In this document: positions 3,225 to 29,566 of the stretch, in pieces | Layout of the letters: each line of letters opens with the position of its first letter | Numbering within the stretch: the stretch's first letter is position 1 | Origin: an uncultured bacterium | Lineage (GTDB): Bacteria > Sysuimicrobiota > Sysuimicrobiia > Sysuimicrobiales > Sysuimicrobiaceae | Direction of reading: 5' to 3' | NCBI GenBank assembly: GCA_964437095.1 | Contig: CAYTFH010000001.1 | Span: 119,072-183,071, forward strand | DNA: 64,000 nt | Made by a program: the position numbers and the translations under genes | Notes under the pieces: generated by a model | Told to the model about the DNA's origin: nothing | The model's database searches: none | Seen by the model: only the letters and a program-made list of their open reading frames with translations

Positions 3225-3348
3225 CCCCGACCTCCGCGTACGTTGTCCAGGCCCCATGCTCGCCGCCCCGCTGTCCCGCGTCTGTAAGGTCCCTCACCGA
3301 AAGTCCCGGCGGCCCCCTCTAACCTCGGAGAGGAGGAGGTGATACGGG

Positions 3349-3708
3349 ATGCCGGATTCGAAGTACGTGGTGTTCGTGCACGCGGGGCCTCAGGAGCTGG
3401 CGCGGGCGCTCCACGCATTGCTGTACGCGCAGGAGCTGCAGCGGTCGGGAATCCCCGCCAAGGTGGTGTTCGACGGCGCCGGGACGGTGTGGTTGCGGGA
3501 GTTCAGCAACCCCGAGCACAAGTACCACGCCGTGTTCCGGCAGGTTCTGGACGCCGGACTCGTGGACGCCGCCTGCGCTTACTGCGCCAACGCCTTCGGC
3601 GTCGCGGAGGCGGTGCGGGCCGCAGGCGTCCCCCTGGTGGGCACCGCAGAAGGGCACCCGAGCCTCGCCGCGTACCTGCGGGACGGCTGGACGCCCATCA
3701 CGCTATAA
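3349..3708 (+). CDS. DsrE/DsrF(YchN)-like sulfur-relay family protein
   Basis: SD GAGGAGGAGGTGA + ATG. Sequence MPDSKYVVFVHAGP...DAACAYCANAF is typical of DsrE-like small proteins. Confidence 0.6.
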   Translation: MPDSKYVVFVHAGPQELARALHALLYAQELQRSGIPAKVVFDGAGTVWLREFSNPEHKYHAVFRQVLDAGLVDAACAYCANAFGVAEAVRAAGVPLVGTAEGHPSLAAYLRDGWTPITL

Positions 3709-3741
3709 TTCCCGCCAGCAGCGTTCGTGGGAGGTGAGGGA

Positions 3742-4239
3742 GTGCCCGGTCCGGGCGCGTACGAGGTTACCTTCGAAGCAGAGGCACACGCCCTTGAGGG
3801 GATGCGCAAGCTGGCGGTGGTCCGGGTCCGCCGGACCGGGGGCGCTGCGGAAGCGTACACCCTCGTCTGCGACGAGGGCGCGCACCTCGGGGGGGAAGGC
3901 AGCGCCCCCACCCCCCTCACCTACTTCGTGGCCGGCGTGGCCTTCTGAATCCTGACCCAGCTCTCGCGGTGCGCGAGAGACCTCAAGGTACCGCTGGAGG
4001 ACGCCCGGGCGCAGGTGGTGGCACGGTTCCGCCGCACCGGGTCCGTCCTGCAGGGCACCGCCCGGGGGGAGTGCGCGGGCTTCGAGATCCGGGTCCGGCT
4101 GCGGTCTGAGGCCAAGCCCGAGGCCGTGCGTCGGGTGCTGCAACTCGCCCACGCCACCTGCTACACGGAGGCGTGCCTGCGCTCGGAGGTCCCCTTGGCG
4201 GTCCACCACGAGCTCAACGGGGAACCCCTGGCCCTGTAG
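3742..4239 (+). CDS. OsmC/Ohr-family peroxiredoxin-like protein with in-frame TGA (3946-3948) at the peroxidatic-Cys position; candidate selenoprotein
   Basis: Two same-frame ORFs (3727-3948 and 4015-4239) form one OsmC-like protein: ...TYFVAGVAF[TGA]ILTQLSRCARD... and ...LAHATCYTEAC... SD GGAGGTGA + GTG at 3742. Confidence 0.5.
3961..3979 (+). promoter_or_regulatory. perfect 8-bp stem/3-nt loop hairpin 12 nt downstream of the in-frame TGA (bacterial SECIS-like)
   Basis: CTCTCGCG-GTG-CGCGAGAG, read directly from the sequence; the apical loop contains G and U. Confidence 0.4.
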
Positions 4240-4249
4240 CGCGCCCGCG

Positions 4250-5095
4250 TCACCACAGGGCTTCCACCGGGCCCCGCTCCGGGTCTCCGAGCCGGGGGTT
4301 GGCGCGGACCCACTGCTCCGCACAGCCCGCGCCGCAGAACAGGTTGTTCACCCCGCAGCCTCCGCCCCGCACGTGCCACACGCCGGTCGGTTCGGCGCCC
4401 ACCAGCCTCCCGTCCGTCACGATCAGGCGGATCCGCCGCATGCACTGGGCACAGGCGTCGTACAGGTGGACGGTTCCCCGGTCGTAGGTCCGCCGGAAGA
4501 GGTCTTCGGGCCGCAGGCTCGCCAGGAACGCGAGCATCTTCGGGGTCATGCCGGGCGCGTCCGGGGCACCGCGCGAAGGCCTCTGGAGGCGCCTGGCCCG
4601 GTAGGTGGGGCTTGTGAGCAGCGCGAAGTCGTGGAAGCAGTTCATGTTGAACCGCTCCTTTCCGGCTACCACCTCGTGGAAGTAGAACCCTACGCCCTCC
4701 AGGAACCGCGGCGCTTCCGGGCTTAGGTGCACGTGGCTCCTGTCCCGCTCCAGGAACCCGATCCAGATCAGGGCGTCGAGGGCGGCCCGGATCCCCGCTT
4801 CCGGGAGCAAGAGGGTCTCCGAGACCCCACGGGCGAGGCGATCCTCCTCCGCCGAGCCCTGCAGGGTTCGGAGCACCCCGCGGGCCACGAGGCGCTCGTC
4901 GTTGGTGAGGAAGTAGGCCGAGGGGTGCCACCGCAGGAGGTCCGCCAGGCGAGGGTCTTCCAGGATCGCCCGGGCGATCCGGCGACGGTCGGCGTCCCGG
5001 AACGGGAGCCCCGCACGGTCCATCGCCTGCTCGAGGTTCGTGCACCGGAAGGGCTCCTGCCAGTCCGCCTCCAGGATCCGCAGCACCGCCTCCAT
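4250..5095 (-). CDS. hypothetical protein; possibly organomercurial-lyase (MerB)-like plus a C-terminal Cys cluster
   Basis: NCFHD (Cys-x2-Asp) and DACAQC about 61 aa later mirror the MerB Cys96/Asp99/Cys159 spacing. C-terminal CGVNNLFCGAGC. Weak homology, start uncertain (ATG 5095 or GTG 5122). Confidence 0.35.
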   Translation of the reverse strand: MEAVLRILEADWQEPFRCTNLEQAMDRAGLPFRDADRRRIARAILEDPRLADLLRWHPSAYFLTNDERLVARGVLRTLQGSAEEDRLARGVSETLLLPEAGIRAALDALIWIGFLERDRSHVHLSPEAPRFLEGVGFYFHEVVAGKERFNMNCFHDFALLTSPTYRARRLQRPSRGAPDAPGMTPKMLAFLASLRPEDLFRRTYDRGTVHLYDACAQCMRRIRLIVTDGRLVGAEPTGVWHVRGGGCGVNNLFCGAGCAEQWVRANPRLGDPERGPVEALW

Positions 5096-5106
5096 ACCCA
5101 CGCCCC

Positions 5107-5295
5107 TTAGCAGAAGGGACACCCGCCCCGGCGGGCTACGGCGGTTCCTTCCTCGGTGCCCGCCTCGGGGACATCCGCTTCAGGGGTCGCAGGCTCGCTC
5201 GACCCCGCCCGGGCGGCGAGGAGGAGGGCCAGGAGCTTCCCCCCGCAGCACAGCGCGATCACCCCCACGATCCCCAAACTGGTAAGCCAGTCCAT
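5107..5295 (-). CDS. small membrane protein with vicinal Cys pair in its TM helix and C-terminal CPFC (MerT/MerF-like?)
   Basis: Strong SD GGAGGTGAGAACG + ATG. MDWLTSLGIVGVIALCCGGKLLALLL...GGCPFC. Confidence 0.4.
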   Translation of the reverse strand: MDWLTSLGIVGVIALCCGGKLLALLLAARAGSSEPATPEADVPEAGTEEGTAVARRGGCPFC

Positions 5296-5309
5296 CGTTC
5301 TCACCTCCC

Positions 5310-6410
<1,101 letters not shown>

Positions 6411-6466
6411 TTATGCGGGGGTTCCGGTGCCCGGTTGGACGGTGTATCCTCGAGGAGGGGTAAGTC

Positions 6467-7043
6467 ATGGAGTCTGGCACCGGGCCGCCTGCACCGGAAG
6501 GGTCCCGCCACACCCGAGAGTTCCTCCAGCGGATGATCGAAGAGCACAGCGCGGCCCTGTACCGGGCAGCCGACCACATGACCGGTCGGGCCGACGACGC
6601 CGAGGACCTCGTCCAGAAGACGTTCATCCGGGCCTGGCGCTTCCTCCACAGCTTCGATCCAGCCGGCAACGCCCGCCGTTGGCTCTTGAGGATCCTGCTG
6701 AACCTGTACGTCGACTCCCTGCGTCGCGGGAAGCGCCGGCCCGAGAGCCTCGACCTATCGGAGGGAAATCCGTAGATGACCTGTACCTTTACCGTCATAT
6801 CGTGAGCTCCCAGGACCTGGAGACCTCCGGCGATCCCGCTGTGGTGTTCTTCGACCGTCTGGTGGGCGATGAGATCCAGGCCGCCCTGCGCGGATTGCCC
6901 ACAGACTACCGGAAGGTGCTCCTCCTCTTTGCGAGGGGTTTTCCTACCACGAGATCGCCGAGATCCTGAACCTCCCCATCGGGACGGTGATAAGCCGCTC
7001 CCATCGGACCAGGACCCTCCTGCAGAAGAGCCTGTGGGAGTAC
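6467..7043 (+). CDS. ECF (sigma-70 family) sigma factor interrupted by two -1 frameshifts (near 6770 and 6940)
   Basis: Region 2 (DLVQKTFIRAWRF) in frame A; region 3/4.1 (LPTDYRKVLLLFA) in frame B; region 4.2 (EGFSYHEIAEILNLPIGTV) in frame C. Both shifts fall at short homopolymers. Good SD GGAGGAGGGG + ATG. Confidence 0.55.
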
Positions 7044-7088
7044 TGCGTCCGCACCGGCCGCTGCCGACCCCAGCCCACGCCTGCCGTC

Positions 7089-7307
7089 GTGCCCGCCCCG
7101 TGTGCGGAGGCGTGCCGACACCTGTACGGCTACCTGGACCCAGCCAGCCTCACCGCGGTCGAGCAACACCTCGCCGTGTGCCGCCGGTGCTGCGACCGGC
7201 TGGAGTTCTACCGGCGTCTGGAAGCCACCATCCGTGAAACCCTCCAGCGCACCCGCCTCCCCCGTTCCCTGCGGTCCCGCCTGAACCGCCTGGCCCAGCT
7301 CCTCTGA
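7089..7307 (+). CDS. anti-sigma factor, ZAS zinc-finger (HxxxCxxC) domain; reads in frame with sigma region 4.2
   Basis: CAEACRHLYGYLDPASLTAVEQHLAVCRRCCDRLEF is the zf-HC2 anti-sigma signature. No stop separates it from the sigma frame-C segment; GTG 7089 is a possible independent start. Confidence 0.45.
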   Translation: MPAPCAEACRHLYGYLDPASLTAVEQHLAVCRRCCDRLEFYRRLEATIRETLQRTRLPRSLRSRLNRLAQLL

Positions 7308-7421
7308 GGGGACGACCCTTGCCCCCCGGGAGTCGCGGAGTAGTTAACATACGGTTTTCCGTAATTTGACCTTGGAAACGGGTGCAGCCGGGGGTCCCGG
7401 GCGCCGGGCCGGGGGTGGACC

Positions 7422-8438
7422 GTGGAGTGGATCTGGTGGGCTGTCCTGCTCGTCCTCGCGAACCTCCCCATCGCCACGCTCCTCCTGGACCGCATCTTCG
7501 GCGTTCCTGCACCCCAGCTCATCCGGTTCGGCTGGCTGCCCGGCGCGTTCGTACTGGCTGGGGTTTTGGCTTGGTCCGCCGCCACACGTCAGCCGGTTCT
7601 CGACCTCGTGGTGTGGGGCGCGGTGGGCGGGTTCGTCGCCACGGTGGCTTTGGACGTCGTCCGGTTCACGGGGCTCCATGTCTTCCGCGCGTTTCCCGTG
7701 GACATGCCTCAGGTCTTCGGCGTGCTCGCCCTCGGTCTGGGTCCGCACCTGCAAAAGAACGTGATCGCCATGGTGCGCCACCTCGCCGGCCAGGACCCTG
7801 AAGCACAGCAGGAGCTCCTGGCAGAGCGCCTGGTGGGCCTTGGGCGGCTCCCTGAGCCCGTGCGGGTGGCCGTCATCCGTGCCATGCGCAAGGGCCTCGC
7901 ATCTTTCCCTGAACCCCAGCGCCACGAGCTCATGGCCACCCAGATGTCCCTCCTCACAACGCTCCCGTCGGAGGCCCGCCAGACGGTGATGCGGGTCATG
8001 GACCTGGCCATGGCCGACCGCGCCCAACCCGTGTACCAGCAGCCCCGCGGCATGCCCAAGGTCCCCATGTACACCGCGAGGGAGCTGCTGGCGGAGGCCC
8101 TGCCCCAGACTCTCGCCGAAGCGGGCGTCCCTCGCGCCGCCGTCCTGTTGGCGGGGTACGGCTGGCACCTCCTGAACGGCTTGGGGTTCGGGGTGACGTA
8201 CACCCTGCTCTTCGGGCATGGGACCTGGGCGCTGGCGCTGGCCTGGGGGCTATTTATCTGGGCGGGGATGATGGTCACCATGCCCATCATGATGCCCACC
8301 ATCCGGTTCCCCATGCCGCGCTTCCTGGTGGTCCTGTTTATCGCCCACGTGGTCATGGCCGGCCCCATCGGGTACTTCGCGTTCCTCGTATCGCGGGAGG
8401 CCCACCGCGCGAGCCTGGTGGGGAGGGTGCTCCCGTGA
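7422..8438 (+). CDS. membrane protein with internal ~19-aa PExxR..M repeats (repeat-family member A)
   Basis: N- and C-terminal TM helices; central LPEPVRVAVIRAMRKGLASF / PEPQRHELMATQMSLLTTL / PSEARQTVMRVMDLAMADRA repeats. Confidence 0.55.
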   Translation: MEWIWWAVLLVLANLPIATLLLDRIFGVPAPQLIRFGWLPGAFVLAGVLAWSAATRQPVLDLVVWGAVGGFVATVALDVVRFTGLHVFRAFPVDMPQVFGVLALGLGPHLQKNVIAMVRHLAGQDPEAQQELLAERLVGLGRLPEPVRVAVIRAMRKGLASFPEPQRHELMATQMSLLTTLPSEARQTVMRVMDLAMADRAQPVYQQPRGMPKVPMYTARELLAEALPQTLAEAGVPRAAVLLAGYGWHLLNGLGFGVTYTLLFGHGTWALALAWGLFIWAGMMVTMPIMMPTIRFPMPRFLVVLFIAHVVMAGPIGYFAFLVSREAHRASLVGRVLP

Positions 8439-8559
8439 AGCTCCTGCCCGGTCGGGGAGGCTCGTGCGCACGCGGGGCACAAGCCAAGCCGCCCCTGACG
8501 GCTTTGCCTCCCCGGCCGGCGCGTCTCGTGGAACGGGCCTGCGCTCGGAGGTGAGAACC

Positions 8560-9970
8560 ATGGCAACTGACCACGTTGTGCCAACGACCCGCGTGGGTCG
8601 GCCCCCGATCCTCCCGCCGGGTTTGTCGATCCTCGTGGGGTTCGCGGACGAGCTCCTGCTCGTGCTCGTGGCGTTGTGGCTGGCGCTCCTCGGCGCTTGG
8701 CTGGGGGCGGTCGTGAGTGGGGGTGGCGGTGGCCATCTGGGCCACGGTGACCACCATCATGCTCTGGCCGGTCGGCCGGCGGCTGGGTCGTCCTTACGTT
8801 TCGTACCGTACCGCCCTGTTCATCCTCGGGGTGCTCAGCATGGCCTACACCCCTGCCATCGGCTTCATCCTCCAGTCGGGTCTTCCGTACACCCCGAAGC
8901 TCATCCTGTGGCTGTTGCTCCCCCTGGACCTCACGGTGTTCGCCATCCTGCCGAGCCTGCGGGCGGCCATGGGCCGCCCCATCCGCATGTTCTTCCGGCC
9001 CGATCTCCTCTTCGGTGACGGCCGGGTCCTGTGCTGCGGGACCGTGGCGCTCCTGTTCGGGATCCGGTACCTCATCGGGCCGCACCCGCCCGAGGGTGTT
9101 CCCGTGGCCCCGCCCCGGTGGAACTGGTGGGGGATCGCCTTCGCCATGGCCTTCGGCTTCATCCCCCTGATCCCCCTCCGGGGGATGACCAAGCTCCTCA
9201 TGCGCACGGCGCGGCTCATCCGCGATGAGGGGTACGGCTGGTGGGGCGTCATCCTGAAGGAGACGTTCCTGGTGGTCACCATCCTGGGGATCGCCCTGGG
9301 GTTCCACCACGCGTTCAAGGGGTGGGTACCCTTCGATGCGCGGTTCTGGGAGGAAGCCCGCAAGGCCATCGAGCACCGCGGGGTGTGGCGGGGTCTCCTC
9401 CTCATGGCCTTCGGGTACGTCTGGCTCGTCTTCGTCCGGGGCGGCTACAAGATGCGCATCGGCGAGCCGTTCCTCCGCGAGACCGTCCTCCAGACGTGGA
9501 TCAAAGAACTGCTGTACGTGCCCGGCGTGGTCGCCCTCGTGCCCGGCGTGATGTTCCTCGTGGAGGAGCACTTCGGGCAGCTGAACCGTGGCGCCATGCT
9601 GGCGGTGGGTATCCCCTTCTTCCTGTGGGGTCTTGTCTGCGTCACCGCCTTCCGGGTCCTAGCCCAGGTCAACCAGCGCCGGGCCCTTGTCCAGCAGATG
9701 GCGGCGGTGGTCCTGCCGGCCCACAGCCCCGAGGTTCGGCGCAAGGTGCTCCGGAAGGTAATGGACGCCCTCGCCGGGATGCCCGGAGATCAGCGGCTGT
9801 TCTACATGCACGCCATGCAGGAGGCCATCGCCCAGTCGCCGGAGGAGGTGCGGGAGGTCATGACCGACGACCGGCTCGCGGTGCTCGCGGAGCTGCCGCC
9901 GGAGAAGCGGCAGGTGATCCTCGCGTCCATGGACCGGATCCTTCTGGATCCGGCTCCCTCGGGAGCTTGA
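8560..9970 (+). CDS. polytopic membrane protein with C-terminal ~19-aa repeats (repeat-family member B); apparent frameshift at the GGGGG run near 8717
   Basis: SD GGAGGTGA + ATG at 8560 gives a TM helix in frame 1. GC3 coding signal switches to frame 2 at about 8717. C-terminal repeats SPEVRRKVLRKVMDALAGM / PGDQRLFYMHAMQEAIAQS / PEEVREVMTDDRLAVLAEL / PPEKRQVILASMDRILLD. Confidence 0.5.
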
Positions 9971-9990
9971 TCACAAAAGAGGTGATCCAC

Positions 9991-10498
9991 ATGAAGGGAT
10001 GGGCATGGGTGAACGTAGTTCTGGGTGCGTGGCTCGTGGTGGCTCCCTGGATCCTCGGGTACGGGCGGGGGGGAGCCGTGGCCAACGACGTGGTCCTCGG
10101 CGTCGCGGTGGGTGTTGCGGCCATTGGCCGCGGCACTCGCCCGCATGCCGGACGCCCAGCGCAAGGTGATGATGGGCGAGCGGCTCCGGATGTTCGCCCG
10201 GATGCCGGAGGCGGAGCGCAAGCGGGCCATGGCCGCCATGATGGAGGGGGTCGCCGCTCTCCCGGACGACGACAGGAAGAAGCTCTTTCAGACCCGCTTC
10301 GAGGTCCTGGCGGAGCTCAGCGACTCGGAGCGCAAGAGCCTCATGAGCACCCACATGGCCATCGTGATGGAAAAAGGGATGGACATGATCCAGACGGAGA
10401 TGCGACTTACGGAGGCCGTTCTCCCTCAGCTGGCCCCGCCGGTCCGCCAGATGGTGCAGACGATGATGGAGAGCATGAGAACGGGCGGGATGCACTGA
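9991..10498 (+). CDS. SPW-repeat-like two-TM anchor fused (via apparent frameshift near 10125) to a Met-rich four-repeat domain (repeat-family member C)
   Basis: SD GAGGTGA + ATG. WVNVVLGAWLVVAPWILGY matches the SPW-repeat type. Downstream frame B encodes MPDAQRKVMMGERLRMFAR / MPEAERKRAMAAMMEGVAAL / PDDDRKKLFQTRFEVLAEL / SDSERKSLMSTHMAIVMEKGM ...MVQTMMESMRTGGMH, about 16% Met. Confidence 0.45.
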
Positions 10499-10541
10499 GC
10501 GCAGCCGGCGGGCGGGTCCCTGGCCGACGCTCCGAGGGGAA

Positions 10542-10952
10542 TCAGGAGCGGCGGCCGGCGCGCCGCCTGCCCTGCCGGGCGCCGCGGGCGCGCACCCTGC
10601 GGTCGATGATGGTGCAGCTGCGGATGCGGTCCGTGTGGTCCCGGAGCATGTCCGCGGCCATCTCCAGGATCCGGCGGACCCGCGGGTCGGTGACCCGGTA
10701 GTACACCCGCCGGCCCTCCCGACGGGCGGTGACGTACCCGCACCACCGTAGGCAGGCGAGGTGGCTCGACACGCGCCCCTGAGGGGAACCGGTGAGGGCC
10801 ACCAGCTCGCTCACGTTCTTCTCCTCGTCCAGCACCGCCTGCAGGATCCGCAGGCGCGTGGGATCCCCCAGCGCCCGGAAGAACTTGGCCATGAGGACCT
10901 CGTCCGACAGGTTCGGCAGCACGAAGGGCGGCGTCATCAGCTCGGCGCGCAT
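10542..10952 (-). CDS. ArsR/SmtB-family metalloregulator
   Basis: HTH KFFRALGDPTRLRILQAVL...VSELVALTGSPQGRVSSHLACLRWCGYV; SD GGAGGTG + ATG. Confidence 0.75.
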   Translation of the reverse strand: MRAELMTPPFVLPNLSDEVLMAKFFRALGDPTRLRILQAVLDEEKNVSELVALTGSPQGRVSSHLACLRWCGYVTARREGRRVYYRVTDPRVRRILEMAADMLRDHTDRIRSCTIIDRRVRARGARQGRRRAGRRS

Positions 10953-10970
10953 TCCTCACACCTCCAGGGT

Positions 10971-10984
10971 CGCACACGTGTTCA
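10971..10984 (-). promoter_or_regulatory. imperfect palindrome TGAACACGTGTGCG upstream of arsR (candidate operator)
   Basis: ACACGTGT core palindrome about 20 nt upstream of the arsR SD. Confidence 0.25.
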
Positions 10985-11031
10985 AGGATACGTGAGCATC
11001 TGGCGGCCCGCAAGCCCGCAGCGGCCGGGCT

Positions 11032-12762
11032 TCATCCGCCCTCCCGGGCGAGCCGGACCAAGCCGGCGGCCAGGCCGTCCAGCAAGGCCTCCCACGACGC
11101 CCGCGGCACCTCGTCCCACCCGGGGAGCTCACACCAGGCCCGCTCGCGGGACGGCTCCTTAGGCCTGCCCACCAGCACCGTGCGGTGCGCGGGGTGCTGG
11201 AAGCCTTCCACCACCACCACGTCCGGTGCGGCTACGCCGTCCGGCCGGCACAGGGCCACCGCCTCCTGCAACGTCAGCGGGTGGTCGGGGAAGGCCCGTA
11301 CCGCCGCCTCCGCGTCACCGGCCAGGACCACGGCGGCAGCACCCGCCCGAGCCGCCCGCTCGCTGTCGCTGCCCTCGCGGTCCAGCTGGAACCCGTGGGG
11401 GGCGTGCTTCACTACCCCCACCTTCAGGCCCAGATCCCTCAGCCTGCGCACCAGTCCCTCCACCACCGCGGTCTTGCCCGCCCCCGACTCTCCCACCACG
11501 CCCACCACCAGGGGTGCCGGACAGGCGTCCGGGATCTCCAGAGCGTCGCCGGTCTCTGGGTGGTCCAGCAGCAGCGCGGGGACCCCGGAACCGGCCCGCA
11601 GGTACGGCGTTTTCGACTTCAGCAACAGCAGGGCCTGCGCCCGCGCCAGGCTTTCCAGCACGGGGCCCGACAACGGCTGTACCGCCATCCGGGAGCCCGC
11701 GGGGGCCAACGCGGCCCACACGGCCCGCATGCGGTCCGTGGCCGGCAACTCCCCTTGCAGGGGAACGACCACCAGGGGCCGCACCACGTGCCGCCGCCCG
11801 CCCAAGCGCAGCAGCAGCGGCCGCACCAACAGGTGATAGGCCGCAAGACACGCGGCGGGGCTGCCGGACAGCGCCACCGCCCACCGCCTGCCTACCACAC
11901 CGGCGAAGAAGGGGCCGCCGGGCTTGAGGTCCACGCGCCCGGCCACCTTCTCCGCCCCCAGGTCCAGCCACACCCTGGGAACCCGGTCGTAACGTCCCAC
12001 GGAAACCGCCCCGGTGGTCAGCACCACGTCGTAAGGACCGGCCAGAGCCCTGTGAAAGGCGGCCCGCAAGGCCTCGGGACGGTCCGGCAGGGTGCCCCCG
12101 TAGTCCACCTCGCAGCCGGCCCGGGAAAGCTCCGCGGCCAACGCGAACGCGTTGGTGTTGAACACGCGGCCCGGCGCCGGCGGTCCAGGGGGCTCGGTGA
12201 GCTCGTCCCCCGTGCAGAACAGCACCATCCGCGGCCTGCGGTACACCCGGAACTCGGACACACCCCCTGCGATCAGGGCCGCCACCGCTCCGGGGCTGAC
12301 GGCCTCACCCTCGCGCACGATGATGGCGCCCTCGGGTAGCTCCTCGTCCGGGCGTACCACGTGCCGCTTTCGAGGCGGTGCCTCCGCCAGCACCACCGCC
12401 GCGCCCTCCCGCCGCACCAGCTCCAGCGGCAGGACGCGGTCTCCCCGGAGGGGCATGGCGGCACCCGTGCTGATGACCCACGCTTCGCCGCGGCCGGGCC
12501 CCGCAGCAGGCGGCTTGCCGGGCCGGCACTCCCCGGTGACCACCAGGCGCACCGGGTTTTCCGAGGACGCCTGCCGCACGTCCTCGTGGTGGCACACGTA
12601 GCCGTCCATGGCGGCCCGCGGGAACCCCGGGGCGTTGCGGGTACTACGCACTTCCTCCGCGCTCACCCGGCCGGCCGCCTGCGCGGAGGGGACCCACTCC
12701 ACACCCACCGGCCGCGCGCGCTCCAGCAGGCTCCTGAGGACCTGTTCCACCGGCTCCGCCAT
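11032..12762 (-). CDS. moeA: molybdopterin molybdotransferase MoeA fused to MobB
   Basis: MoeA N-terminal and central domains. C-terminus has the P-loop GVVGESGAGKT and VVKH of MobB. SD AAGGAGGG + ATG. Confidence 0.8.
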   Translation of the reverse strand: MAEPVEQVLRSLLERARPVGVEWVPSAQAAGRVSAEEVRSTRNAPGFPRAAMDGYVCHHEDVRQASSENPVRLVVTGECRPGKPPAAGPGRGEAWVISTGAAMPLRGDRVLPLELVRREGAAVVLAEAPPRKRHVVRPDEELPEGAIIVREGEAVSPGAVAALIAGGVSEFRVYRRPRMVLFCTGDELTEPPGPPAPGRVFNTNAFALAAELSRAGCEVDYGGTLPDRPEALRAAFHRALAGPYDVVLTTGAVSVGRYDRVPRVWLDLGAEKVAGRVDLKPGGPFFAGVVGRRWAVALSGSPAACLAAYHLLVRPLLLRLGGRRHVVRPLVVVPLQGELPATDRMRAVWAALAPAGSRMAVQPLSGPVLESLARAQALLLLKSKTPYLRAGSGVPALLLDHPETGDALEIPDACPAPLVVGVVGESGAGKTAVVEGLVRRLRDLGLKVGVVKHAPHGFQLDREGSDSERAARAGAAAVVLAGDAEAAVRAFPDHPLTLQEAVALCRPDGVAAPDVVVVEGFQHPAHRTVLVGRPKEPSRERAWCELPGWDEVPRASWEALLDGLAAGLVRLAREGG

Positions 12763-13482: not shown

Positions 13483-14187
13483 TCACCGGCCCGCCGCTGC
13501 TGCGTCCACCCACCACACCAGCACGCCGTCCCGCGGGCGGATCGCGCTGGCGGGACAGCTCAGGGCATCCACCGGCCCTTCCAGGGCCCGCCGCTTCTCC
13601 TCCCCAGCCACCAACACGTCTACCCGGCGCGCCCGGTTGAGCACGGGCAGGGTCAGGGTGAGGCGCACCGTGGGCGGGGTCCCGCCCCACACCGCCACCA
13701 CCCACCGCTCGGTCTCGAGGACCGCCGGCGAGCCGGGAAAGAGGGAGGCCACGTGCCCGTCCGCTCCCATCCCCAACAGGACCAGGTCGAAGGCGGGGTC
13801 GTCCGGCCCCAGCTCCGCCCGCAGGCGGTCTGCGTACGCGGCCGCCGCCTCATGGGGATCTGCCAGGTGAGTGGGCATGGGGTGGACGTTGTCCTGGGGG
13901 ATGGCGACCCGATCCAGGAGCGCGGTCCGCACCATGCGGTAGTTGCTGGCCGGGTGGTCCCGGTCCACGTACCGCTCGTCCCCCCACCACAGGCGGACCG
14001 CCCTCCACGGCACGTCCCGGTCTTGCGCCAGCAGTTCGTACATCCGCCTCGGCCTGCGGCCTCCGGCCAGGGCCACCACGCACCGGCCGGACCGCGCCAC
14101 GGCCTCCCGGATGCAGGCGGCGACGCTAGCCGCGGCGGCGGCGCTGAGGGTTTCCAGGTCCGGGTGGACCCGGACTTCCCCGGTCAC
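13483..14187 (-). CDS. pgl: 6-phosphogluconolactonase
   Basis: VALAGGRRP...WGDERYV...SNYRMVRTALLDRVAIP motifs; GTG overlaps the zwf stop (GTGA). Confidence 0.75.
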   Translation of the reverse strand: MTGEVRVHPDLETLSAAAAASVAACIREAVARSGRCVVALAGGRRPRRMYELLAQDRDVPWRAVRLWWGDERYVDRDHPASNYRMVRTALLDRVAIPQDNVHPMPTHLADPHEAAAAYADRLRAELGPDDPAFDLVLLGMGADGHVASLFPGSPAVLETERWVVAVWGGTPPTVRLTLTLPVLNRARRVDVLVAGEEKRRALEGPVDALSCPASAIRPRDGVLVWWVDAAAAGR

Positions 14188-15625
14188 GTGGTGAACCAGC
14201 TCCGGTGGTCGCGCCGCAGGAGCTCCCAGGCTTCTCCGGGACCCCAACTGCCCGCGGGGTACGGGTGGACCGGTGGTGGGTCCTCGAGCAGCCCAGCGTA
14301 CACGCGCCACGCCTCCTCCACCTCGTCCGCCCGCACGAACAAGGACGGGTCCCCCCACAGGACGTCCGGCAGAAGGGTGTCGTACGCGTCCGGGAGCACC
14401 CCGAAGGCCTGCCCATACCCGAAGTGCAGCCGCTCCGTGGTGAACCGAATCGGCTGACCGGGGTGCTTCACGGAGAAGTACAGGTCGAACCCCTCGTCCG
14501 GCTGGAGGGTTATGACCAGGGCGTTGGGGTCCAGAGAACAGCCGGGGCCGAAGAGGGCCACGGGCGCCGGCCGGAACACCACCACCACCTGGCTTCGCTG
14601 CTGCCCCATGCGCTTGCCCGTGCGCAGGTAGAAGGGCACCCCTTGCCACCTCCAGTTGGACACCTGCACCCGCAGGGCGACGAAGGTCTCGGTCTGGGAG
14701 CGGGCGCCGAGCTCCTCCGGGTACCCGGGGACGTCCCGCCCCTGGACCCGGCCGCGGCGGTACTGGCCGAACACCGCGTCCTCCCGCCGCACCGGGGCCA
14801 CGGACCGCAGCACCTTCACCTTCTCGTTCCGGATGGACTCGGCTTCGAAGCTCGCGGGCGGTTCCATGGCCACCAGGGTCAACAGCTGCGTCAGGTGGTT
14901 CTGCACCATGTCCCGGAGGGCGCCCACCTGGTCGTAGTACTCCAGCCGCCCTTCCACCCCGATGGTCTCCGCCACGGTGATCTGCACGTGGTCCACCCGG
15001 TCCCGGTTCCACAGGGACTCGAAGATGGGGTTGGCGAACCGGAAGGTGAGCAGGTTCTGCACCGTTTCCTTCCCGAGGTAGTGGTCGATGCGGTACACGT
15101 GTCCTTCGTCAAAGGAAGAGTGGACCAGGGCGTTCAGGTGGCGGGCGGAGGCGAGGTCCAGCCCGAAGGGCTTCTCCACCACGAGGCGGGTCCAGCCGGA
15201 ACTCCGGTTCAGGTCGCTGCGCCCCAACCCTTCCACTGCAGGGGCGACCGCGCGCGGGGGGGCGGCCAGGTAGAACACGCGGTGGGGCGGCAGGCCGAAC
15301 TGTTGCTCAGGCCTTCCACCCGGGCCCTCAGGGACTCGTAGTCCGCGGGGGTTCCTGGGCCGAGGGGGTGGAAGAACAGGCAGGCCTCACACCACGCCCG
15401 GAGCGCTTCGCAGGGGAGTCCAGCCTCCGCTAGGGCATCCCGCGCCCACGCCCGGAACCGTTCGTCGTCCCAGGGCGAGCGGGCGACCCCCACGACCACC
15501 TGGCGCCGCAGCGTCCCCTTGGCGCCCAGCCGCGCCAGAGCGGGGAGAAGCTTGCGGCGCATGAGGTCCCCGGTGGCCCCGAACACCACGAAGACGTGCG
15601 GCGGGATCTCAGCGCGCGTCGCCAC
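14184..15625 (-). CDS. zwf: glucose-6-phosphate 1-dehydrogenase, apparent frameshift near 15300-15340
   Basis: N-terminus VFVVFGATGDLMRRKLLPAL (15209-15625 frame). Remainder (FYLAAPP...RIDHYLGKE...) lies in the 14184-15278 frame. Confidence 0.7.
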
Positions 15626-16523
15626 GGCGCTTGAGGGGGTGCCCGCCGAACTGCGCCCGCATCACGGCCAGCAGCCGGTCCGCGTAGGACTCCAGGTCCC
15701 GGGAGCGGAGCCGCTGCAGCAGCGACAGGGTGATCACGGGCGCGGGCACGTCCAGATCCACGGCCTCCGCCACCGTCCACCGCCCCTCTCCGGAGTCCTC
15801 CACGTAGGGCGCCACGTCCGTCAAGTCCGGGTCCTGCTCCAACGCACGCGCGGTGAGGTCCAACAGCCAGGACCGGATGACGCTGCCGTGCCGCCACAGC
15901 TCTGCCACCTGGCGCAGGTCCAGACCGAACTCCCGCTTCCGCCGCAGGATGGCGAACCCCTCCGCGTACGCCTGCATGAGGCCGTACTCGACGCCGTTGT
16001 GCACCATCTTCACGAAGTGACCCGCGCCCACGGGCCCCACCCTCGCCCAGCCGCGGTCGGGCGCGGGGGCCAGGGCCTCCAACAGCGGCCTCAGGCGCTC
16101 CACCGCCGCGGGCGCACCCCCCACCATGAGGCAGTACCCGTTCTCCTCACCCCAGACCCCGCCGCTGGTGCCCACGTCCACCAGGTGGATGCCCTTCTCC
16201 CGCAGGGACTCGGCCCTGCGTAGTGTGTCCCGGTAGAAGGAGTTGCCGCCGTCCACCACCACGTCGCCCGGCGACAGGTGTGGCGCAAGCTCGTGGATGA
16301 CGCTGTCCACCGCTCCCGCGGGCACCATCAGCCACACCACCCGGGGGGCCGCCACACTCTTCGCCAGCTCTTCCAGAGAGGAGACCGCGCGCACCCCCGC
16401 CTGCTCCGCCCGACTCCGGGTCTCCTCCTGACGCGCGTACCCCAGCGCGCGGTGGCCGGCGCGCACCCAGCGCCGCGCCATCCCCCCTCCCATGCGGCCC
16501 AGTCCCACCAGCCCGACGTCCAC
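15609..16523 (-). CDS. gnd: 6-phosphogluconate dehydrogenase (short NAD-binding GndA/YqeC type)
   Basis: MDVGLVGLGRMGGGMARR Rossmann N-terminus; central ...MVHNGVEYGLMQAYAEGF... Confidence 0.75.
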   Translation of the reverse strand: MDVGLVGLGRMGGGMARRWVRAGHRALGYARQEETRSRAEQAGVRAVSSLEELAKSVAAPRVVWLMVPAGAVDSVIHELAPHLSPGDVVVDGGNSFYRDTLRRAESLREKGIHLVDVGTSGGVWGEENGYCLMVGGAPAAVERLRPLLEALAPAPDRGWARVGPVGAGHFVKMVHNGVEYGLMQAYAEGFAILRRKREFGLDLRQVAELWRHGSVIRSWLLDLTARALEQDPDLTDVAPYVEDSGEGRWTVAEAVDLDVPAPVITLSLLQRLRSRDLESYADRLLAVMRAQFGGHPLKRRGDAR

Positions 16524-29086: not shown

Positions 29087-29136
29087 CCGGGGTCCCCAAA
29101 AATCGCGCCAGCGATTTTTGGGGCGCTCTAGCGCCC
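29087..29136. repeat. palindromic repeat element, copy 1 (inside the FMN reductase gene)
   Basis: CCGGGGTCCCCAAAAATCGC-GCCA-GCGATTTTTGGGG plus adjacent GGGCGCTCTAGCGCCC palindrome; AT-rich core. Confidence 0.6.
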
Positions 29137-29566
29137 ATCACCGCCACGGGCTTGCCCCGGAAGGGGTTGTCCCCCGCGGGGCGGGTGGCCCAGTCCAGCG
29201 CGTTCTTCAGCACCCCCGGGAAGGACCAGTTGTACTCCGGGGTGACCACCAGCACCGCGTCCGCGTCGCGGATTTCGCGCTTGAAGGCCACCACCGCCTC
29301 CGGGAGCCCTCGCTGCTCCACGTCCCCGTCGTACAGGGGGATGCCCCTCAGGTCGAAGGCCACCACCTCCACGTCTTCGGGGGCCACCTCCGCCGCCGCC
29401 CGCAGCAAGGCGCGGTTGTAGGATCCCTCCCGCAGGCTGCCCGCGAACCCCAAGATCTTCACTGATCCCTCACGCACGCGTGCCCCCTTCCGATTCGGGT
29501 TTACGGCGCAGCAGTGTACGCGGCTCCGCCGGGCGCGTCAAACCCTCTTGACAATTCCACGAGCTC

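Follow-up and report, generated by a model that had tools for sequence, protein, structure and literature searches.

The 64,000-nucleotide (nt) stretch analyzed here (contig CAYTFH010000001.1, positions 119,072 to 183,071; hereafter, the window) carries, at 9991–10498 on its plus strand, the remains of a gene for a small membrane protein rich in methionine (Met). We are highly confident that this copy is a pseudogene produced by a 251-nt internal deletion within a locally decaying block of the genome. Judged from its intact relatives, and here our confidence is good, the gene would encode a small inner-membrane protein with an N-terminal SPW-repeat anchor (two or four helices), a short linker, and a cytoplasmic Met/Arg-rich α-solenoid of seven helices and ~125 residues; it is the last gene in a cassette that encodes two larger membrane proteins, g339 and g470, and the small protein, in that order. 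The mechanism that we propose for the protein, docking into a membrane complex that belongs to a soft-metal/thiol-stress regulon, is tentative, and we rate it at less than even; the explanation as a whole (pseudogene, cytoplasmic tethered domain, stress complex) we rate at slightly better than even.

The G+C content of the window is 72%, so long spurious open reading frames (ORFs) are common. The gene and its remnants are read as follows:

9979–9985 (+), Shine-Dalgarno-like GAGGTGA, read from the sequence, that ends 5 nt ahead of ATG 9991

9991–10125 (+), remnant of SPW repeat 1 in frame 1, 45 codons with two predicted transmembrane helices (Pfam SPW match, identity to homologues)

10125–10126 (+), frame-shifting deletion junction (DNA alignments with loci L021 and L001)

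10126–10701 (+), out-of-frame read-through tail of 192 nonsense codons that overlaps the 3′ end of the minus-strand arsR gene (frame 1 translation)

10127–10498 (+), remnant of the Met/Arg-rich seven-helix domain in frame 2, with helix 1 truncated and the stop TGA at 10496–10498 (homology, Met count)

The frame that opens at ATG 9991 starts MKGWAWVNVVLGAWLVVAPWILGYGRGGAVANDVVLGVAVGVAAIG, and its Shine-Dalgarno sequence is kept in the DNA alignment with L001/L002. The product of 9991–10125 shares 79–85% identity with residues 1–33 of intact homologues, and in translation its SPW motif is APWILGY. When the two parts are rejoined, the reconstructed fusion matches the Pfam family SPW (PF03779) over residues 5–44 with 39.7 bits against a gathering score of 31.5 (E 7e-10), as expected from the preliminary description, in which the N-terminus was likened to SPW-repeat anchors. 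Past the SPW part, frame 1 is low-complexity sequence that runs to a stop at 10701. The Met-rich part, in frame 2, is 87% identical to residues 127–253 of the protein encoded by L001; the Met content of about 16% that was reported for it stands, that is, 19 Met occur in the 117 codons from 10146 to 10495 (16.2%), where 20 confident window genes average 1.5% (binomial P~2e-14). The database call for this part covers only 10146–10498; this 117-aa C-terminal piece (P0003) is the sole database protein identical to the window sequence.

The intact allele is found in L021 (92% nucleotide identity to the window), which encodes a 252-aa protein, P0153, that clusters with P0003 at 90% and which matches the window in gene order (339 aa, 470 aa, 252 aa, convergent ArsR). 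Relative to L021, 251 nt (3n+2) are absent from the window at 10124/10125 as a clean gap in the DNA alignment; with L001/L002 as the reference, the gap at the same place is 254 nt. The deleted DNA codes for SPW repeat 2, the linker, and the first turns of domain helix 1. Because the window lacks these 251 nt, the SPW part and the Met-rich part are in different frames; this accounts for the frame problem near 10125 that had been flagged for checking against raw reads. Programmed frameshifting at 10125 was considered and rejected (no slippery motif is present, the deletion is the cause, and even a shifted product would be missing SPW repeat 2, the linker, and part of helix 1). Collapse of the two SPW repeats into one during assembly is unlikely because the deletion does not begin and end at corresponding points of the repeats, whose DNA is only 75% identical. 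Thus, the single SPW-anchored, Met-rich protein first proposed is genuine as a fusion in at least 11 intact relatives; in the window, however, its parts are in frames 1 and 2 and are not joined. Translation of the Met-rich part from a start of its own is also unlikely because no Shine-Dalgarno sequence precedes either GTG 10025 or ATG 10146. With no in-frame fusion and no plausible start, the earlier view that the Met-rich segment is translated here has essentially to be given up, and with it the view that this genome has a functional gene: the copy is a relic, broken by deletion.

The pseudogene has damaged company. The genes that carry the other lesions, together with the remaining, intact member of the cassette, are the following:

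5313–6410 (−), remnant of merA, residues 188–553 only, with an in-frame stop near 5562–5564 (tblastn; Pfam Pyr_redox_2, Pyr_redox_dim)

6464–7307 (+), extracytoplasmic function (ECF) sigma factor with a fused C-terminal ZAS-like domain, broken by 1-nt deletions near 6763 and 6933 (tblastn in three frames; DNA alignment)

7422–8438 (+), g339, membrane protein, intact at 338 aa, with the helical domain between transmembrane blocks (domain similarity, homology)

8560–9970 (+), g470, polytopic membrane protein that ends in the helical domain (tblastn in two frames; DNA alignments)

14190–15607 (−), glucose-6-phosphate dehydrogenase (G6PD), split over two frames with the break near 15290–15308 (frame reading, codon-usage scan, homology)

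In g470, the first ~48 codons are out of frame as the result of two 1-nt deletions near 8703 and 8718. The merA remnant keeps the C-terminal CCAG and 82% identity to an Armatimonadota merA; it has lost the first 187 residues, with the HMA domain and the region of the redox-active site. The genes that flank G6PD look intact (6PGL, 13489–14187; 6PGD, 15627–16523), and ProRS and MoeA-MobB elsewhere in the window are intact. We used a codon-usage scan over the whole 64 kb to spot frame breaks; the signatures are found at 5.1–15.6 kb and at one further candidate (29133–29462), and apart from that candidate no comparable break occurs in ~45 coding segments between 20 and 64 kb. The lesions are therefore grouped in one locally decaying block, about 5.3–15.6 kb of the window. 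The candidate, the only one outside 5–16 kb, is a coding-like segment on the minus strand that stops 164 codons short of the stop of its ORF.

A sister contig (L008, 97% identical) has lost the block outright: its positions 1–471 align to window 3934–4304 and then from 10233 onward, and about 100 bases of unrelated sequence stand in place of window 4304–10233. With that span went the merA remnant, the sigma factor gene, g339, g470, and most of the SPW gene; of the Met-rich gene, the last 265 nt are all that is left. The module is being lost in this lineage; local decay together with outright loss of the block in sister strains suggests that it is dispensable and that its value depends on the environment.

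The damage might instead be an artefact of assembly or sequencing, the organism having an intact, expressed gene. The contig is probably metagenome-assembled, and the 1-nt deletions in the sigma factor gene and g470 fall in G homopolymers, where sequencing errors are typical; some of the lesions could therefore be artefacts, which counts against reading every one as real. However, a 251-nt deletion whose endpoints are not repeat-equivalent, a nonsense codon in merA, the missing merA N-terminus (neither of which is an indel error), and the clustering of the lesions (at 5.3–15.6 kb, with none clear in the other 44 kb) favor real local decay. The truncated 117-aa product is also on record in 3 contigs (NCBI and Logan), and the sister strain is without the whole block. 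We therefore regard an artefact as improbable and retain the pseudogene.

The intact family is real but uncharacterised. Searching 1.84 billion representative proteins with a profile of the Met-rich domain (E≤1e-3) yielded 130 representative clusters; a scan of genome contigs returned one locus, and a metagenome scan with a narrower alignment seven, mostly short. In the protein search, intact homologues of 198–253 aa consist of SPW repeat(s), a linker of roughly 25–30 residues, and the Met-rich domain. The anchor was initially described as having two helices; this holds for the relatives of roughly 200 aa, to which the two-helix form is confined, whereas the closest intact relatives (252–253 aa) have a four-helix anchor, that is, two SPW repeats. 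Other proteins carry the domain in other ways. Free-standing forms (about 125–160 aa) start straight in helix 1, with no signal peptide found in them, and six end in a PWWKFW-type tail; nine representatives have the domain N-terminal, followed by two C-terminal SPW repeats; and in another architecture a two-helix hairpin precedes the domain. In the g470 family, the domain is at the C-terminus of polytopic proteins of 420–560 aa; in the g339 family, it is inserted between the transmembrane blocks of ~340–370-aa proteins. We infer, strongly, that the tether differs across lineages (N- or C-terminal SPW, two-helix hairpin, C-terminal WWKFW tail, or none). The tail, (K/R)(P/S)WW(K/E/R)(F/L)W after a low-complexity spacer, occurs in P0024, P0028, P0031, P0032, P0033, P0037, and the protein encoded at 7992–8480 of L023; it may serve, in place of the SPW anchor, as a tag for peripheral membrane binding or for docking to a partner.

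On the profile evidence, the anchor genuinely belongs to the SPW-repeat family. The first 45 residues match PF03779, in which each repeat is a transmembrane helix pair with (S/A)PW(I/L)LG(Y/F), and the intact relatives are annotated with this family; a helix pair for each repeat with an SPW-like motif is found both in the hydrophobic segments and in the AlphaFold2 model of full-length P0002 (helices at 2–21, 29–73, and 79–102). Typical members, however, are small proteins composed of SPW repeats alone (e.g., P0013), whereas here the repeat anchors a soluble domain, APW replaces SPW, and only one of the two repeats is left in the window.

The soluble domain is built from LP(E/D)xxR repeats, the unit being h-P-(E/D)-x-x-R and the helix after it; five Arg that belong to these motifs are near-invariant in the alignment. 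An AlphaFold2 model of the domain has seven helices (pLDDT 94.3, pTM 0.87). With the full-length model and the domain alone as queries, Foldseek searches of the PDB returned no match below E 0.3; the best (E 0.33, TM≤0.43) is to generic ARM/HEAT/PCI or designed helical repeats, and a sequence profile search of the PDB likewise returned designed repeats (best E 0.19) and no relative. Among Pfam families, DUF3106 (PF11304) gives a weak repeated match of 25.3–27.8 bits against a gathering score of 24.3 (25.3 for the reconstructed fusion), and 29/52 family members match at E≤0.01; the match is nevertheless borderline and partial (positions 30–103 of 104, roughly 70 positions), and the description of DUF3106 is without Met-richness and without the g470, g339, and SPW architectures. 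At best, the domain would be a distant DUF3106 relative.

Counts of Lys plus Arg (K+R) place the domain on the positive side of the anchor in 22/23 anchored proteins. Because of these counts and the existence of N-terminal, signal-less versions of the domain, we predict that it faces the cytoplasm, held at the membrane by one of several interchangeable tethers. This bears on a reading in line with the preliminary description, namely, a functional SPW-anchored protein whose Met-rich domain is extracytoplasmic and binds Cu(I)/Ag(I) as CusF, CopC/PcoC, or CopM do. Its attractions are the 16% Met in MxxM/MM clusters, the conserved AMxxM and THM motifs and MMxMMPMPAM-type tails of relatives, and the copA, csoR, merA, and ArsR genes nearby; we nevertheless consider it highly improbable. 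The window gene is out of frame, the free-standing relatives have no export signal, the domain is often N-terminal to its anchor, and the positive-inside rule assigns it to the cytoplasm, so the topology predicted is the opposite of that in this reading; in addition, the all-α solenoid has no Foldseek match below E 0.3 to any solved structure.

Known Met-rich copper proteins are mostly β-folds or helical bundles unrelated to a Met-rich solenoid. CusF, CopC/PcoC, CopM, and the Met-rich inserts of multicopper oxidases work outside the cytoplasm (PMC7558416, PMC4335983, PMC11840665). The family has in common with them a high Met content, MxxM-type clusters with accompanying His, and neighborhoods of copper or mercury resistance genes; the differences are the predicted cytoplasmic location, the predicted α-solenoid fold, and the lack of any sequence or fold match, with no CopC, CusF, or DUF305 match in a Pfam scan of the family. 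By predicted location and fold, then, the domain is outside the known families of Met-rich copper proteins, and the likeness to classical Cu(I)/Ag(I) binders that was first drawn does not hold on either count.

The Met-richness itself is a conserved trait of the family. In an alignment of 161 domain instances, eleven columns have ≥50% Met, with Leu, Ile, and Val as the alternatives, and in ten columns Met is present in 60–85% of the sequences. The Met of the AMxxM motif are conserved at 72–82% and the His of THM at 59%; no Cys column was found in the same alignment. Relatives with MMxMMPMPAM-type tails also exist.

This pattern must be weighed against a plain protein-protein scaffold, in which Met would simply fill hydrophobic positions of the solenoid, with no chemistry of metals or oxidants, and the cassette would do an unrelated membrane job. 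Such a scaffold would account for the replacement of Met by Leu, Ile, and Val, for members with 1.5–2.4% Met, for the structural-looking character of the only strictly conserved residues (the five repeat-motif Arg), and for a closest fold likeness to generic ARM/HEAT/PCI-type repeats. The 60–85% Met at ten columns, compared with 1.5% in window genes, is hard to explain by hydrophobicity alone, however; the Met-rich C-terminal tails and the Met-rich motif of g339 (vide infra) point to selection for thioethers, and the linkage to mer and cop genes is persistent. A scaffold is therefore rather unlikely, although of the alternatives considered here it deserves the most weight.

The three co-encoded membrane proteins, g339, g470, and the small protein, have the helical domain in common, and the cassette order g339-g470-small protein is often preceded by the ECF sigma-ZAS fusion. 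The gene for the small protein is next to a g470 homologue in L001, L003, L009, L012, L013, L015, L017, L021, L022, L023, and L029 and often adjoins g339 too. The window g339 is 87.6% identical over its full length to the 339-aa protein of L001. At least 162 homologues of g470, named only as hypothetical proteins, are found in Armatimonadota, Chloroflexota (Thermoflexus), and Actinomycetota. Neither g470 nor g339 matches a Pfam or NCBIfam family or a PDB sequence, and NCBIfam has no match for any of the three cassette proteins; the C-terminus of g470 has a faint, below-threshold match to MgtE_N (E 0.004).

The g339 family has the motif W-x2-MM-x2-MP-x-MMP in its hydrophobic C-terminal block, followed by an (F/L/Y)P motif; it is seen at window 7422–8438, L003 5469–6497, and L029 10594–11616 and in P0088 and P0107. 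This Met-rich motif is reminiscent of thioether-lined copper pathways. In L019 (3946–4503), a 185-aa variant of g339 joins residues 1–57 to 225–339, the whole internal helical domain being absent; this variant adjoins an intact SPW/Met-rich gene and merA. Because the variant has no internal domain, the domain is separable from the membrane core of g339.

The sigma factor has orthologues in L001 (1–645) and L017 (5422–6300, minus strand); the L017 copy has Sigma70_r2, r4_2, and zf-HC2. Its ZAS-like extension (C-x3-C … H-x3-C-x2-C) is soluble and part of the same polypeptide; no transmembrane segment is found in the protein, and no CorE-type CXC motif is found in its sigma2-sigma4 linker.

Around the cassettes, the following neighbors recur:

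10542–10952 (−), ArsR/SmtB-family regulator convergent with the pseudogene (NF033788, E 1.3e-25, 89 bits vs a cut-off of 55; Pfam HTH_5, E 4e-14)

merA or a gene with an HMA domain, in the window, L003, L015, L019, L012, L024, L025, and L029

csoR and/or copA, in L003 and L015; in L023, two csoR genes with the C-H-C fingerprint lie directly upstream

ArsR in six contexts (window, L003, L015, L019, L021, L027)

ECF sigma factor, often with fused zf-HC2, in five contexts (window, L001, L009, L013, L017)

G6PD in six contexts (window, L003, L007, L009, L015, L017)

The convergent ArsR/SmtB gene is thus as first described. It has Cys in LACLRWCG and one C-terminal Cys, a pattern that we take to resemble the site of CmtR (the Cd/Pb-sensing ArsR subgroup); against the CmtR model it scores 70.4 bits with a cut-off of 150, that is, below the equivalog level. 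An orthologue (84% identical) lies by the cassette in L003 in a different arrangement, and the gene also adjoins the cassette in L019 and L021. The metal-related company holds up more widely: merA/HMA, copA/csoR, and ArsR genes recur in independent lineages. Genes for peroxiredoxin (AhpC) and thioredoxin are common nearby, and OsmC genes are present as well. In L029 (1278–12061; assembly labelled Thermoflexus hugenholtzii, GCA_053493115.1), mer genes and Met-domain genes form one same-strand cluster, merA-merB-(359 aa)-(Cys-rich 73 aa)-merE-(141 aa)-thioredoxin-like-(222-aa membrane protein with Cys motifs), then zf_CopZ-Crp-g470-(131-aa membrane protein)-g339-free Met-rich domain. The cassette there spans 8822–12061, and the free domain, of 130 aa, is encoded at 11669–12061.

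Several of these genes have a 16-bp palindrome, ATACGG-N4-CCGTAT, in common:

7349–7364 (+), palindrome ATACGGTTTTCCGTAA, upstream of g339, a copy of the ATACGG-N4-CCGTAT element

In 227 kb (the window and non-redundant loci) we count 19 sites, compared with 2.8 +/- 1.6 in shuffles, and most are 18–57 nt upstream of g339, g470, merA, arsR/6PGD, a sigma factor gene, or genes of the AhpC region. The sites include window 7349–7364 and 3342–3357; L003 5435, 6555, 10270, 15878, and 15971; L015 4171, 7445, 8567, and 12023; L017 4064, 7051, and 13534; L019 3875; and L013 2012. The palindrome is absent from the more distant lineages L009, L012, L023, and L029. Because it is shared upstream of cassette and stress genes, co-regulation is suggested; the element is a candidate repressor operator, or a candidate 5′-untranslated region hairpin, that would define a regulon.

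With this context, our best guess is a soft-metal or thiol-stress role at the membrane, a reading that derives from the genes of the putative regulon. Because the domain is present on g339 and g470 and is separately encoded beside both, its copies probably associate. In the mechanism that we tentatively propose, the free or tethered domain would dock with the paralogous domains of g470 and g339, giving the cytoplasmic assembly of a membrane complex; the complex would be expressed within a soft-metal/thiol-stress regulon that includes merA, copA/csoR, ArsR, G6PD, and peroxiredoxins; and the retained Met (with one His) could offer Cu(I), Ag(I), or Hg(II) a set of thioether ligands. Alternatively, the Met might form a flexible hydrophobic surface, sensitive to oxidation, by which the complex is gated or regulated. 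A bolder version, which we think unlikely, is that g339, g470, and the small protein are a previously unrecognised thioether-based soft-metal (Hg/Cu/Ag) membrane system, with g339 as a Met-lined path and the three Met-rich solenoids as a cytoplasmic relay or gate, under regulation shared with merA, copA, and NADPH supply in thermophilic members of the Chloroflexota, Armatimonadota, and Actinomycetota.

Several points weigh against a soft-metal complex. In the cytoplasm, thiols and Cys-based sensors keep Cu(I) and Hg(II) buffered at levels well under those for which Met-only sites could compete. Met-poor members, e.g., P0047 and P0103 (1.5–2.4% Met), retain the fold although Leu/Ile occupy the Met positions, which means that the family can do without Met. 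No structural match links the domain to metal binding, and the heteromerisation of the three domain copies is putative. Finally, a few thermophilic lineages supply most of the dozen or so contigs behind the neighborhood evidence, which is thus partly non-independent.

The thiol-stress genes admit one more interpretation, a sacrificial Met sink or sensor for oxidants (HOCl, peroxides), that is, a cytoplasmic counterpart of the periplasmic MrpX (PMC4436054). MrpX is a periplasmic peptide that is recycled by a dedicated methionine sulfoxide reductase (Msr) and controlled by the SigF/NrsF ECF pair (PMC4436054). The resemblance is that of a Met-rich protein gene beside an ECF sigma/anti-sigma module in a stress locus: the ECF sigma factor with its fused ZAS domain adjoins the cassette, and G6PD (NADPH supply), AhpC/peroxiredoxin, thioredoxin, and OsmC genes are nearby. 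However, no methionine sulfoxide reductase (PMSR, SelR, or MsrP-type) is present in the Pfam annotation of the contigs that were looked up; the domain is a well-ordered, highly conserved fold and not a disordered Met-rich peptide; and, unlike MrpX, it is predicted to be cytoplasmic and is built into membrane proteins, being shared with g339 and g470. The analogy with MrpX/MsrP fails because the location differs and the reductase is missing, and we consider a Met sink or sensor distinctly improbable in comparison with the docking complex.

Two other known systems bear on the docking complex and its sigma factor. In the RCK/KTN rings of K+ channels and the N-domain of MgtE, as here, a soluble domain is both fused to membrane proteins and separately encoded alongside them; the analogy is one of organisation only, with no sequence or fold relationship and no transport implied for g470 or g339. 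The ECF sigma factors CorE and CorE2 respond to Cu or Cd/Zn (PMC3107203, PMC4937300), CorE-like factors need a CXC motif in the sigma2-sigma4 linker, and ZAS domains usually sense oxidative or thiol stress (PMC8999054). The sigma factor adjoining the cassette is like the CorE type in having a Cys-bearing C-terminal extension in one polypeptide, here with the ZAS signature H-x3-C-x2-C; unlike them, it has no CXC linker motif, and its extension looks like a fused anti-sigma ZAS domain and not like the Cys-rich domain of CorE.

The locus itself is a dead copy and matters little; the gene family is more interesting. It has a confidently folded, strongly Met-enriched domain, predicted to be cytoplasmic, that has no solved relative and that recurs next to genes for mercury and copper resistance and a redox-type sigma factor, and none of g339, g470, and the small protein has a functional annotation; full-text literature on 'SPW repeat' and 'DUF3106' contained nothing relevant to function, the mentions of DUF3106 being unrelated. 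Should the family handle soft metals, mer and cop systems would have a new accessory, and thioether chemistry would be at work, as is rare, on the cytoplasmic side; failing such a role, the family would still be a conserved stress-linked membrane complex that is testable in cultured Thermoflexus hugenholtzii.

Outside the cassette, the window encodes a DUF7482 protein with a Tat-like signal at 1350–2792 on the minus strand and, at 3343–4239 on the plus strand, a trio of a DsrE-like gene, a small ORF, and an OsmC-like gene, with a copy of the palindrome at the start of the DsrE-like gene. The DUF7482 gene and the DsrE-like/OsmC-like trio are syntenic with the Armatimonadota locus L003 (12234–14602).

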